Shown: positions 1,487 through 64,000, counted from the stretch's first letter. The stretch: 64,000 bases of DNA from Gammaproteobacteria bacterium (GCA_047620145.1 JBLHKO010000002.1:19963-83962); one strand, 5' to 3'. Made by a program: numbers and translations. The notes: a model not told the origin generated them from the sequence alone.

Positions 1487-1536
1487 TTTCGTCATACCCA
1501 ATCAATTATCGTCATGCCGGCCTTGAGCCGGTATCC
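1487..1536. repeat. Short hairpin repeat unit: cgtcat followed by a GC-rich palindrome (catgccggccttgagccggtat)
   Basis: The 25-nt core cgtcatgccggccttgagccggtat recurs as its reverse complement at 63084-63110. Related 'cgtcat'+palindrome units are at 1490 and 62231. Confidence 0.6.
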
Positions 1537-1905
1537 AGTCAACCAATCTCGCCTGAAAGGCGAACATTAATTTATCTGTAAGACCTCTTCATTATCACAT
1601 TATCGGTTTCGTCTTCATGACGACTTACTTTTCTTTAAAGATAAGTAAGCAAAAGAACCTTTCCCTAATGTCTTCTCCTGCGGGTTCCTGAATTTAGCTT
1701 GATGGCCAACGCGCCGTCCACAGGCTCATCCCTGATCCGGTGGACTAAAAATCAGCCTATCCTTAACATTCTTACTTCACAGCGCTAAAGGAATAGAGAT
1801 GAAAAAACCTCACATCAAAGTTTCTTCTAAAAATGGCGCGCTTTTAGTTTATATATCCAATAAACGCGCCATTTTGGCTCACTATCAACAAGTTAGCTGT
1901 CAAAC

Positions 1906-2380
1906 ATGAACGATGATAAAAATTCAGCTGTTGGACTGACAAAAGTAATTTCAATTATATATTTCATGTTGGGACTAGAAATTTTTGTTGCAGTCTTTAA
2001 TGAGATAGAAATAAATGGAATGTTATTAAATTGGAAATACGATATATGGGCGCCAATATTAATAATGATTGTTGCATTGGGAACAATAAGAAAAACAAAA
2101 TGGAGCGATGGTCTTCTTCCCCATTATCCTTGGTCATCCTTATTGGTGCGCCCATTGGAACAATTTTAGGCGGTTTTATGCTCTGGCAATTAACCAAATA
2201 TCGTGCTGCGTTTACACGATGGTATTAGCAGCTAACGACCGGCTCAATATCAGCGCGCAAAAAGCAATACACTTGGGGGCAGACCACGTTTTTCGAGCCT
2301 TTGATTACCATGGCTCAAAACCAAGGGGTTTTCTCCCCTTATATCGTGCCGAGCAGATGAATGATTTTAAGGTTATTTGA
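1906..2380 (+). pseudogene. AT-rich segment holding three overlapping, frame-shifted ORFs (87, 65 and 90 aa) with transmembrane-like segments; possibly a decayed membrane-protein gene
   Basis: The ORFs at 1906-2169, 2031-2228 and 2108-2380 sit in three different frames. Each carries hydrophobic helix-like stretches. The AT content is locally high, and no single intact frame spans the segment. Confidence 0.25.
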
Positions 2381-2459
2381 ACAGGACGTTCAAATAAGCG
2401 GAACCAAGACAGGAGTCTTGTTTCCGCGACCTTAAGAAATCATGCATCTGTGAGGGAGT

Positions 2460-2635
2460 CCGCAGGACATGATCTCAGGGGTGTCTTTTTTTGATGTGTA
2501 GGACGCACGAATGTCGCGGGTGCATGGATGCACAAGAGCGACCCTGGGTACTTCATTTTTTGGACAAGCAAAAAAGAAGTGCCTCGCCGTTAAAAGGCGA
2601 AACCAAAGCTAAAACGAATCCTCGATTTCAAATCT
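2460..2635 (+). repeat. Left copy of an inverted repeat of about 170 bp; the core at 2488-2612 is nearly identical to the reverse complement of 63725-63852
   Basis: I aligned it directly against the reverse complement of 63700-63880. The stretch ctttttttgatgtgtaggacgcacgaatgtcgcgggtgcatggatgcacaagagcgaccctgggtacttcattttttggacaagcaaaaaagaagtgcctcgccg(t/c)taaaaggcgaaacc is shared, and similarity falls off toward both ends. Confidence 0.85.
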
Positions 2636-2697
2636 GCCAAAACATATACAATGGAATAATTGTTGACAGGCCGCATTTCTAGACGAGAATTAAATAA

Positions 2698-8734: not shown

Positions 8735-9136
8735 ATGTCTTCCCCAAAGACAGAGGCATGGTTAGACGCAGTAAAGTGGAATAATGACGGTCTGGTTGCT
8801 GTGATTGCCCAGGATTTTAACTCAGGCGATGTCTTGACTCAGGCCTGGATGAGCCGCGAAACACTGGCCCTGACAGAAGCAGAAGGCCGCGCAGTCTATT
8901 GGTCTCGATCGCGAAAGAAAATCTGGTACAAAGGTGAAGAATCTGGACATGAGCAAATCATCAAGGAAATTCTTCTTGATTGTGATAATGATGCATTGCT
9001 CTTGAAAGTAGAACAGATGGGCGGAATTGCTTGCCACACAGGACGTGCCCGGTGCTTTCACCAACGACTTGAAGACGGTCGTTGGGTAACAATAGAACCA
9101 GTGATAAAAGATCCAAAAGACATTTATAAGAAATAA
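8735..9136 (+). CDS. hisI: Phosphoribosyl-AMP cyclohydrolase
   Basis: A 133-aa ORF with the HisI motifs YWSRSR..LW.KGE.SG. It starts immediately after the hisF stop. Confidence 0.85.
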
Positions 9137-9909: not shown

Positions 9910-10200
9910 ATGTTTGACATAGGTTTTTGGGAGCTCGTTATAATCGCGGTCATCGCGTTACTTGTCGTAGGTCCCGACAAGCTTCCTGCTTTTGCACAAC
10001 AGGCAGGAAAATGGATTGGCAAAATTCGTCGCATGAAAAACAATCTACAAAGAGAATTAAAACAGGAATTATCTTTAGATGAAGGAAAAGAATTTAAACA
10101 ACAGCTGAGCGACCTTGATGATTTGATGAAAAATGCACCAGATCAAGATCCTGCTTTTCTAGCCGAAAGTGATCGAAGTAATAAAAAAACAGACAGCTGA
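9910..10200 (+). CDS. tatB: Twin-arginine translocase, TatB subunit
   Basis: It begins [26 protein letters not shown], which is the TatB signature. Its position follows tatA. Confidence 0.85.
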
Positions 10201-62261: not shown

Positions 62262-62579
62262 TTAAGGCTCAAGTCGATCTTTGTTTAATAATTTGTGACC
62301 TTCAAAAACCGTGACGATAAGAACGGTTTCATTCTGAACCAGATAAACGATGCGGTAATCCCCTAAAAATACTTCGCGAATATTATTATTTTCAAATTCA
62401 GGAACGATACGTCCGGACATTGGTGCATCGATAATTTTTCTTGCTCTTGTCCGTAATTGTTTAATCCATTTTTTGGCATTGACTAGATTATCTTCGGCAA
62501 TAAATTTACCGATTGAAATTAGATCGTCCTGAGCTCGTTTCGTCCATGCTAATTTCGTTTTTGCTAAGTGATCACAAAT
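62262..62579 (-). CDS. ParE/RelE-family toxin of a type II TA pair. It has no canonical start codon and is absent from the ORF track
   Basis: Hand translation of the minus strand gives ...LAKTKLAWTKRAQDDLISIGKFIAEDNLVNAKKWIKQLRTRARKIIDAPMSGRIVPEFENNNIREVFLGDYRIVYLVQNETVLIVTVFEGHKLLNKDRLEP*. The frame opens just after a TAG and overlaps the antitoxin stop. The only in-frame candidate start upstream of LAW is an ATT. Confidence 0.55.
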   Translation of the reverse strand: MCDHLAKTKLAWTKRAQDDLISIGKFIAEDNLVNAKKWIKQLRTRARKIIDAPMSGRIVPEFENNNIREVFLGDYRIVYLVQNETVLIVTVFEGHKLLNKDRLEP

Positions 62580-62848
62580 TCCTCCCTAAGCGTAGCTGAT
62601 AATTCCTCGTCAGAAATAATGTTTCCTGCTTTGGCATCTTGCAGACCCTCTTTTACAGCAGCAAAAAATTGTTCCTGTCTAGATAATCGATCAAATTCTT
62701 CAGGTGTCAGCAGGACGGCGGCAGGCTTACCATTTTGAGTAATAATCACAGGGCGATTTTTTTCATGCAGATTGCGTAAAACTTTGGAGGCATGAGTCTT
62801 GAACTGTCCGAGGGGGAAAATATCTTCAGATATAAGAATGGATTTCAT
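62564..62848 (-). CDS. Phd/YefM-family antitoxin
   Basis: A 94-aa ORF with the Phd/YefM pattern MKSI.ISE......K.H.SKVLR.L....RPVIITQNGKP.AVLL..EEFD.L. Confidence 0.75.
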   Translation of the reverse strand: MKSILISEDIFPLGQFKTHASKVLRNLHEKNRPVIITQNGKPAAVLLTPEEFDRLSRQEQFFAAVKEGLQDAKAGNIISDEELSATLREEFVIT

Positions 62849-62900: not shown

Positions 62901-63038
62901 AAGCCGCAAGCTTTTAAAGGTAGAGGCCAAAGCAGTATCCGGCCCGTGAATTAGGAGCACGCCATACTGGGCGTGACCCAGTATTCAGTGAAAAAGTACA
63001 ATCTGTAGCGCCTGTAAGGTGGGATTGATTGACTGGGT

Positions 63039-63112
63039 CGCTCTTTGATATCCATATCACCGCGACATTCGTGCATCCTGCACGTCATACCGGCTCAAGG
63101 CCGGCATGACGT
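63039..63112. repeat. Composite repeat: a cgcgacattcgtgcatcctgcac unit followed by a cgtcataccggctcaaggccggcatgacg hairpin
   Basis: The first unit also occurs inside the large repeat, at 2505-2527 (reverse complement) and 63807-63830. The second unit is the reverse complement of 1509-1535. Confidence 0.7.
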
Positions 63113-63683: not shown

Positions 63684-63699
63684 TATGATTGTGTTTATT

Positions 63700-63880
63700 G
63701 GTGGATTTGAAATAGGAGGTGTAGTTTAGCACTGGTTTCGCCTTTTAGCGGCGAGGCACTTCTTTTTTGCTTGTCCAAAAAATGAAGTACCCAGGGTCGC
63801 TCTTGTGCATCCATGCACCCGCGACATTCGTGCGTCCTACACATCAAAAAAAGACACCCCTGATATCAAGGCCTGCGGCT
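63700..63880 (-). repeat. Right copy of the ~170-bp inverted repeat. The core at 63725-63852 is the reverse complement of 2488-2612
   Basis: My by-eye alignment of the core shows only 3 or 4 mismatches. Similarity then decays toward 63700 and 63880. Confidence 0.85.
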
Positions 63881-64000
63881 TCCCTCGTCAGTCAGTAGTG
63901 CTCACGGGGTCGTGGCTACATGACTTCCTTTCATGGAGCCGCTTATCTGCACGTCCTGTGCAGCTACCCCTATCACTACTTCCTTCCTCGGCTTGATATA

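Follow-up and report, generated by a model that had tools for sequence, protein, structure and literature searches.

The window analysed here is a stretch of 64,000 nucleotides from a gammaproteobacterial assembly (GCA_047620145.1, JBLHKO010000002.1:19963-83962). A repeat search of the window found an inverted pair of 189-nt arms (2452-2640 and 63698-63886), which are 90% complementary and lie 61 kb apart. The left arm faces the start of a peroxiredoxin gene and the right arm faces the start of maf. The genes between the arms include rpmH (23854, minus strand), dnaA (about 24.5 kb, plus strand) and gyrB (about 28-29 kb, plus strand), and the cumulative GC skew has its minimum at about 24 kb. 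Therefore, the initial annotation, which had described near-identical copies flanking the replication origin region, had the origin context right. The features identified in the window are listed in Table 1.

Table 1 Positions of the elements, the 50-nt module, the doublet spacer and the small hairpin repeat in the window
Feature	Position	Strand	Basis or remark
Small hairpin repeat, uninterrupted ("empty") form	1509..1548	+	cgtcatgccggccttgagccggtat^ccagtcaaccaatc
Element E ("E-type", divergent partner of A); borders approximate	1604..1790	-	match to the 3' end of D, sequence
Spacer segment X, common to both doublets	1746..1883		73% identity to L001 9020-8894
Element A, core domain	2329..2492	+	Rfam RF01731, fold z-score -6.1, consensus fold
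Module copy A	2493..2542	+	model R1 73.6 bits, E = 2e-18; independent fold domain; covariation
Element A, trailing part (hairpin 3, hairpin 4, tail)	2546..2640	+	alignment and fold
Module copy C	63037..63086	-	model R1 67.8 bits
Element B, trailing part (hairpins 3 and 4, tail)	63698..63795	-	alignment, fold
Module copy B	63796..63845	-	no difference from copy A; same private variant GTGTAGGACG
Element B, core domain	63853..64000	-	TwoAYGGAY-type; fold, 74% identity to A core

In a pairwise alignment, about 130 nt of the two arms (approximately 2478-2608 against the reverse complement of approximately 63733-63864) were almost identical. A single mismatch separated A from B in this core (cgccgT/Ctaaaagg), and a weaker similarity continued on both sides. 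A 33-mer of the core occurred exactly twice in the window and in none of 100 shuffles. The near-identical inverted repeat is therefore real by repeat search, alignment and shuffles alike. Its borders had been drawn too narrowly: about 160 nt of further homology lie upstream, in an RNA domain that has diverged while covarying. The repeat is also composite rather than one unit. Copy B extends about 6 nt past the window end, and the DNA beyond this end was taken from contigs encoding an identical Maf protein. Copy B lies less than 300 nt from the window end, and these repeats are frequent break points of metagenome contigs. Both facts would fit a duplicated or collapsed contig end, and the initial annotation had named such an artefact as a reason to discard the repeat. 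However, assemblies of different samples give B unique sequence on both sides, the upstream domains of A and B differ in a covarying manner, and their tails differ too. Copy B, including the 50-nt module described below, was matched base for base in metagenome assemblies of other samples (L004 and L006). Since independent assemblies rebuilt copy B exactly, we regard an assembly artefact as practically ruled out.

The inverted repeat is the 3' part of two elements of about 300 nt, A and B, which we assign to the TwoAYGGAY RNA family (Rfam RF01731; Weinberg 2010, PMC2864571); an extended Pseudomonadota form of this RNA has been described in a preprint (10.64898/2026.09.22.753630). In Pseudomonadota, TwoAYGGAY occurs in multiple copies and in divergent doublets, with extra 3' hairpins and with repeats at a fixed downstream position (10.64898/2026.09.22.753630). 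The same arrangement of doublets was found here. B is one half of a divergent doublet, the other half of which, element D, lies about 680 bp off on the other strand. The left end of the window holds a homologous arrangement, with E on the minus strand, a shared spacer and A on the plus strand. Four elements within about 74 kb thus form two homologous divergent doublets, E/A and B/D, and the arms of the inverted repeat belong to the element on the right of the first doublet (A) and to the one on the left of the second (B).

A search of Rfam with a short stretch matched A to RF01731 at 2329-2489 (plus strand) with 44.6 bits (gathering score 43; E = 1.3e-5), whereas the gathering scan of the whole window returned no match to any family and missed A. 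Therefore, the lack of an Rfam match on long inputs is unreliable for TwoAYGGAY. Rfam searches with B, D and their relatives gave sub-threshold matches at most. The core domains (about 155 nt) of A, B, D and six relatives nevertheless share one TwoAYGGAY-type consensus fold (RNAalifold), in which 24 of the 42 pairs show compensatory changes. On the strength of this shared covarying fold, B and D were counted in the family although the Rfam model reported neither. Wobble pairs in the core domains favour the annotated strand (15 G.U versus 5 A.C). The core domains of A and B are 74% identical, and those of A and D are 88% identical. Upstream of the near-identical stretch, the sequences of A and B diverge while their hairpins are kept by compensatory changes, with GGA in most loops.

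The core domain of A comprises a basal stem (CCCC...GGGG) with inner stems, two sequential hairpins with the loops AGGAC and AGGA, and a U-run (2486-2492). The order of the predicted fold is the basal stem with its two GGA-loop hairpins, the U-run, an independent domain of 50 nt, hairpin 3 (2546-2583, with GGA in its loop and covarying among relatives) and hairpin 4 (2585-2599, cgcc-gttaaaa-ggcg). The minimum-free-energy fold of 2329-2612 had a z-score of -6.1, and the element folds ranged overall from -4.6 to -6.1. Copy B adopts the same fold with or without the 50-nt domain; its U-run is at 63846-63852, and the element was found whole in L001 (9056-9216) and in L004. The tail of A resembles that of B up to about 2640, and the tail of B stops 15 nt short of the maf start codon (63683). 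The palindromes seen inside the repeat by the initial annotation are real and correspond to these covarying hairpins. The trailing hairpins are present in the elements of relatives with or without the 50-nt domain. Loops in the core read cAGGAc, cAGGAg and aAGGAAg, so that, relative to AYGGAY, the GGA is kept and the Y before GG is missing.

The initial annotation suggested a modular family of MITE- or REP-like repeats. The modularity held, as did the existence of a small, mobile-looking separate unit; a single MITE/REP unit of about 170 bp did not, the true units being the element of about 300 nt and a 50-nt insert. Transposition of one such MITE/REP-like element to two origin-flanking sites would account for the stretch of near-identity within 189 nt of recognisable similarity, for the internal palindromes and for the presence of a sub-module elsewhere in the window. 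However, both terminal inverted repeats and a target-site duplication are lacking. Diverged, covarying homology continues upstream, and the near-identical core splits into a 50-nt unit, which is missing from B in four assemblies, and hairpins conserved throughout the family. This explanation is contradicted by the empty B allele and is highly improbable compared with paralogous elements carrying an insert.

Element E contains a GGA hairpin (tccaccGGATCAGGGATGAGCCTgtgga), a 3' stem (...caggagaagacattaggg), a T-run, a trailing hairpin (gcttacttatctttaaagaaaagtaagtc) and cgtc-atgaa-gacg, and its segment 1636-1683 matches the 3' end of D at 78%. The spacer segment X, between E and A, contains a palindrome of 46 nt at 1830-1875 (AAAATGGCGCG...CGCGCCATTTT; AAAATGGCGCGCTTTTAGTTTAT/ATATCCAATAAACGCGCCATTTT), and the B/D spacer keeps a similar sequence (AAATGGCGCG...GCGCGCAATTT; L001 approximately 8905-8950). 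This palindrome might mark a bidirectional promoter or a regulator site common to both doublets. A conserved protein encoded by the doublets was also considered and was dropped, since the small ORFs in one doublet show no homology to those in the other. Another family of small repeats, with the hairpin ccggccttgagccgg and the flank tatccagtcaa, is present 3' of mgtE (1509-1548) and 3' of maf (63010-63112). In the relatives L018, L024 and L026, this small hairpin repeat follows TwoAYGGAY-type elements at a fixed distance, a placement reminiscent of Pseudomonas fluorescens, in which REP arrays lie downstream of TwoAYGGAY (10.64898/2026.09.22.753630).

The independent 50-nt domain of A is a module of its own. 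Copy A reads GATGTGTAGGACGCAC-GAAT-GTCGC-GG-GTGCATGGATGCAC-AAGA-GCGAC, which corresponds to hairpin H1, a linker and helix P2 enclosing hairpin H2. In copy C (GACGTGCAGGATGCAC-GAAT-GTCGC-GG-TGATATGGATATCA-AAGA-GCGAC), the H2 stem is fully compensated. The initial annotation had pointed to a lone occurrence of a 14-mer at 63039 (cgcgacattcgtgc); this occurrence is real and is in fact a complete copy of the module (copy C). A covariance model of the module found exactly three copies in the window, and it also found diverged copies elsewhere that are beyond the reach of fixed search patterns. In the module, which is 49-52 nt long, a hairpin of 4 bp with the loop A(N)GGAY is followed by a linker of 4-5 nt and a 5-bp helix; the helix encloses a bulge of 2 nt, another hairpin with a GGA loop and an ARGA strand of 4 nt. 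This layout does not vary among the copies. The loop of H2 is the canonical AUGGAU. In 26 diverse copies, 13 of the 14 pairs change on both sides and 92% of the cells are paired; none of 500 shuffles reached the observed values, and pairing fell to 12-50% in a control with slid partners. The ratio of G.U to A.C wobbles was 15:8 in A3 and 4:11 in A2 and thus picked out no folding strand, so that the hairpins of the module may matter as DNA rather than as RNA. A "type 2" module in L011 and L015 has an unrelated sequence and the same architecture, and it merges into the same family.

Pattern scans of genomes and metagenomes, which also returned obvious chance matches in high-GC coding DNA, recovered about 59 distinct sites filled with the module; these come from proteobacterial MAGs and metagenomes ranging from 37% to 72% GC. 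A fourth filled module in the same organism is at L001 443-493. In each of the four, the sense strand points towards the origin (plus to the left of dnaA, minus to the right), which with n = 4 is not significant; transposition of single-stranded DNA predicts an orientation bias relative to replication. In copies from high-GC DNA, nested inserts occur: H2 holds one of 42 nt in its loop, H1 also holds one, and a module is found within a module (L009 1130-1221, L012 5726-5817, L014 34-125, L021 257-348, L023 3522-3618 and L130 1182-1251), and tandem copies occur in L012 and L088. The module itself thus serves as an insertion target. Among known families and replicons, no Rfam family covered the module; a 15-mer of it gave 120 matches in viral contigs, all by chance, and a BLAST search of plasmids gave a single chance match in a primase gene. 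A literature search with the module sequence returned a single unrelated paper, and a keyword search for a CsrA-linked mobile repeat returned nothing relevant. Inspection by eye for the defining motifs of a group II intron remnant, an integron attC site, a CRISPR repeat, a k-turn and the known small ribozymes showed none of them, and these identities were rejected.

The module is a discrete, structurally constrained unit that is seamlessly gained or lost at T^C, usually just after a hairpin and a T-run. At locus B, the 50 nt are absent from L001, L002, L003 and L005 (GATGTGTAGGACGCACGAATGTCGCGGGTGCATGGATGCACAAGAGCGAC) and present in the window, L004 and L006, and linked SNPs mark the filled and the empty form as two strain lineages. 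D is empty in this organism and filled at the identical position in L024, a related MAG. The corresponding site of E (between 1656 and 1655) is empty in the window and filled in L030 and L050; E-type elements with a filled site were also found in L064, L079, L090 and L091. Copy C sits within the small hairpin repeat just 3' of maf, where it is fixed in seven of seven versions of the locus, and the repeat behind mgtE provides the uninterrupted counterpart. All four comparisons of empty and filled sites (B, D, E and C) give a difference of exactly 50 nt, with T on its upstream and C on its downstream side and without any duplicated base. Across the recovered sites, T precedes the module in 51 of 51 scorable cases and C follows it in 54 of 59 distinct ones; the upstream flank is rich in YTKT. 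The ends of the module (GAYGTG... and ...GAGCGAC) are not inverted copies of each other, and the module has neither the terminal inverted repeats nor the target-site duplication of classical MITEs. The locus offers natural experiments on the function and the spread of TwoAYGGAY elements, with an allele pair that differs by a 50-nt cassette and with empty and filled sites that fix its ends and its T^C target.

Insertions of the module were found in several other contexts. Modules occupy the apical loops of unrelated long hairpins (L022, L053 and L074) and positions directly behind classic intrinsic terminators (L001 443, in the same organism, and L113 1940). Modules were also found in or beside genes for IS91-family transposases (Pfam: Zn_Tnp_IS91 and Y2_Tnp), at no fewer than five separate positions and in either orientation. 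A 51-nt copy in L034 lies in frame inside the HxH motif of an IS91-type gene, while other insertions in genes are out of frame or bring stop codons. Because the module has inserted independently into coding DNA, recombination among sRNA paralogs cannot account for it. Unbiased clustering of the ORFs neighbouring modules revealed no recurrent protein besides the IS91-family transposase. In L028, L040, L052, L087 (4293-4343) and L117, the upstream flank of the module is the HxH site of an IS91-type gene and the downstream flank is its PLDL|MARL site, which suggests that recombination between two modules inserted in one transposase gene removed about 0.3 kb.

The seamless gain and loss, the fixed dinucleotide at the junctions, the subterminal hairpins, the lack of terminal inverted repeats and the preference for hairpin/T-run sites and rolling-circle elements suggest that the module may move as single-stranded DNA by a footprint-free mechanism of the HUH type, of either the IS200/IS605-RAYT or the IS91/Helitron kind. 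The independent insertions into IS91-type transposase genes point in the same direction. We propose this mechanism tentatively and place it noticeably below even odds; the IS91 genes appear only as insertion targets of the module.

Given these two kinds of units, the 3' near-identity of A and B is explained by trailing hairpins that are conserved family-wide and by the same private module variant in both elements. This variant was found nowhere else among the recovered copies. The filled and the empty B haplotypes show 5-7 differences over about 1050 aligned nt, and two of these substitutions lie within 7 nt of the indel and equal A (cCTGGGTAC versus CTTGGGCAC). Since both substitutions next to the indel equal A, they point to a conversion tract from A rather than to a second clean insertion, and B in this strain probably received its module from A by gene conversion. 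The tract would be short, at least 59 nt and at most about 120 nt. Alternatively, one master copy could have supplied A and B in two separate transpositions, given that the module does transpose and that both elements offer its favoured site, which follows the U-run and precedes cttggg. However, separate transposition does not provide for the two adjacent substitutions by which filled B copies the private flank of A, and the filled sites of relatives read CTTGGGTAC; we thus consider it unlikely. The B-type loci of relatives are filled (L011 and L018), so that the empty B allele may have arisen by exact loss of the module and need not be ancestral. As a whole, paralogous TwoAYGGAY elements, a mobile module and a conversion from A to B form the best explanation of the inverted repeat, and we assign it a probability of about 0.72.

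If the conversion took place as proposed, the near-identical copies to either side of the origin do recombine, and they do so non-reciprocally. The initial annotation had expected such copies to be substrates for recombination that inverts the origin-containing segment. The exchange between A and B agrees with the first part of this expectation; no inversion was found, and seven of seven versions of the maf locus had the arrangement of the window, although short contigs could hardly reveal an inversion. Contigs of the same organism (L007, L008, L133, L001-L003 and L005) have ends inside or beside the elements, and the TwoAYGGAY-type repeats thus break metagenome assemblies here. All the contigs found with mgtE and the peroxiredoxin gene end inside repeats, and no alternative A allele was among them. 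Because the repeats fragment short-read assemblies, no second allele of locus A was recovered.

The repeat had also been thought to donate promoter or regulatory sequence to the adjacent genes, and a cis-regulatory leader or promoter cassette for the peroxiredoxin gene and maf would fit the orientation of the copies, both of which face a start codon at 15-58 nt and share atttcaaatc in their tails. However, the only good sigma-70-like match upstream of the peroxiredoxin gene (2663-2690) falls outside the repeat, and at maf the -10 box of the match overlaps the ATG. Furthermore, the two downstream genes are unrelated, other sequences adjoin the same elements in relatives, and D and E have no such arrangement with a gene. 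A leader or promoter role is therefore very improbable. On the opposite strand, hairpin 4 and the A-run of hairpin 3 resemble an intrinsic terminator (GTTTCGCCTTTTAACGGCGAGGC with a T-rich tail; 2581-2603, minus strand, and L001 9255-9277, minus strand). The 3' end of the element may stop transcription arriving from the side of the downstream gene.

The elements are rich in GGA, with 8 per element against about 2.9 expected; 6-8 of these are unpaired in the predicted folds, and the opposite strand has 1-3. The loops of TwoAYGGAY match the CsrA-binding motif, and binding of CsrA has been proposed; paired GGA hairpins would suit dimeric CsrA/RsmA (PMC4333381). The preprint on the extended form leaves the function open and mentions a possible role as a Csr/Rsm sponge as well as a "mobile-element-like" expansion (10.64898/2026.09.22.753630). 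The elements may thus be transcribed and then act as multivalent decoys for a CsrA/RsmA-type protein, and each module would add two GGA hairpins of the high-affinity type. With the evidence of GGA number, loop position and strand, we give the decoy role slightly less than even odds. RF01731 is placed in the Rfam clan CL00106 together with the CsrB/Rsm sRNAs. The U-run after the basal stem is terminator-like, so that the module and the trailing hairpins might fall outside the main transcript. A GacA/UvrY box (TGTAAGN6CTTACA, up to 3 mismatches) was not found near any element, the window having fewer matches than its shuffles, and no csrA gene was found in the window. CsrA homologues lie 1.5-3 kb from modules in two unrelated loci (L020 1484-1648 and L027 1529-1675) and are 82% and 43% identical to E. 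coli CsrA. Two CsrA homologues in about 0.7 Mb of sampled DNA are above expectation, and the observation is anecdotal.

The SELEX consensus of CsrA is RUACARGGAUGU, and the module loops GCAGGAUGC and GCAUGGAUGC resemble it. The module might be a so far undescribed, ultra-small mobile element that is defined by its structure and carries two candidate CsrA/RsmA hairpins. It would insert and excise without a footprint at T^C, mostly right behind hairpins or terminators and very often in IS91-type transposase genes, and would so spread protein-binding sites. We consider this rather doubtful as a complete account. If true, protein-binding sites would be spreading among sRNA sponge genes and mRNA 3' ends, and a transposable regulatory RNA cassette would tie the mobile-element-like expansion of TwoAYGGAY to Csr/Rsm regulation; with a cassette that binds CsrA/RsmA, bacteria would have a means of relocating post-transcriptional regulatory sites within a genome. 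The hairpins and GGA loops of the module could instead be recognition features for a single-stranded DNA transposase, unrelated to CsrA or to any RNA function. The seamless T^C insertion, the subterminal hairpins and the preference for hairpin/T-run sites and IS91-type genes are consistent with such recognition features, as are the wobble test, which showed no preference for an RNA sense strand, and the position of the module behind a terminator-like U-run. However, the two sequence-unrelated module types have only their architecture and GGA motifs in common, the loops resemble the CsrA consensus, and the 44%-GC lineage accumulates modules in sense orientation in GGA-rich elements. A role confined to transposase recognition is thus on the unlikely side as well.

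TwoAYGGAY elements rank among the most abundant structured non-coding loci of Pseudomonadota. The elements described here resemble them in the two sequential GGA-loop hairpins on a long basal stem, the extra 3' hairpins, the multi-copy divergent doublets and the downstream repeats at a fixed position, and variants with additional 3' GGA hairpins are known. They differ in their host, an uncultured gammaproteobacterial lineage with 44% GC rather than Pseudomonas, in their A-GGA-Y loops and in the spacing of the doublets (530-680 bp versus a median of 249 bp). Moreover, the extra hairpins here include a discrete 50-nt insert that is also found outside TwoAYGGAY loci. The host elements appear to be a known, recently re-described family, while the 50-nt cassette, its seamless T^C insertion, its polymorphism in the population and its association with IS91 appear to be new. 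With the sRNAs CsrB, RsmY and RsmZ, the elements have in common the many GGA motifs in hairpin loops, the pairs usable by dimeric CsrA/RsmA and the several paralogs per genome, but the GacA/UvrY box is missing here, and the copy number and mobile-element-like behaviour are unlike those of classical sponge genes.

The module also resembles several kinds of small mobile elements. REP and REPIN sequences, which are linked to RAYT (IS200/IS605-like, Y1 HUH), are likewise tiny, hairpin-forming, extragenic multi-copy elements without terminal inverted repeats or target-site duplications and are often placed behind genes and terminators. However, the hairpins of the module are direct rather than inverted, one is nested in a third helix, and the GTAG of REP is not conserved, occurring in the module only in the private variant of the window. 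Unlike REP, the module also inserts into coding DNA, and no RAYT gene was seen. Like IS91, ISCR and Helitron elements, the module inserts at a fixed dinucleotide without duplication, has a subterminal 3' hairpin and is physically associated with IS91-family (Y2 HUH) genes. It differs in being only 50 nt long, in that the association with IS91 is one of an insertion target, and in its T^C flanks; the target of IS91 is GTTC/CTTG and that of Helitron is A^T, neither of which matches the flanks of the module. With single-stranded DNA elements mobilised by HUH enzymes in general, it shares the lack of terminal inverted repeats and target-site duplications, the subterminal hairpins, a short fixed motif and seamless empty alleles. 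The palindromic elements of Rickettsia are also small structured repeats able to sit in frame in genes, as does the copy in L034, but their sequences and hosts are unrelated and most copies of the module are extragenic.

Two further observations concern the right end and the arms of the repeat. Contigs of the B-empty haplotype (L001, approximately 10130-10192, and L002) diverge totally from the window beyond about 62880 and end there. A toxin-antitoxin pair of the PhdYefM/ParE type is encoded on the minus strand at 62564-62848 and 62262-62420, and because the contigs of the other haplotype diverge at this point, the pair is strain-specific. Finally, the repeat creates two spurious ORFs, at 2491-2682 (plus strand) and 63695-63847 (minus strand), with identical N-termini (MMCRTHECRGCMDAQERPWVLHFLDKQKRSASPLKGET...), which gene callers could annotate as duplicated hypothetical proteins.
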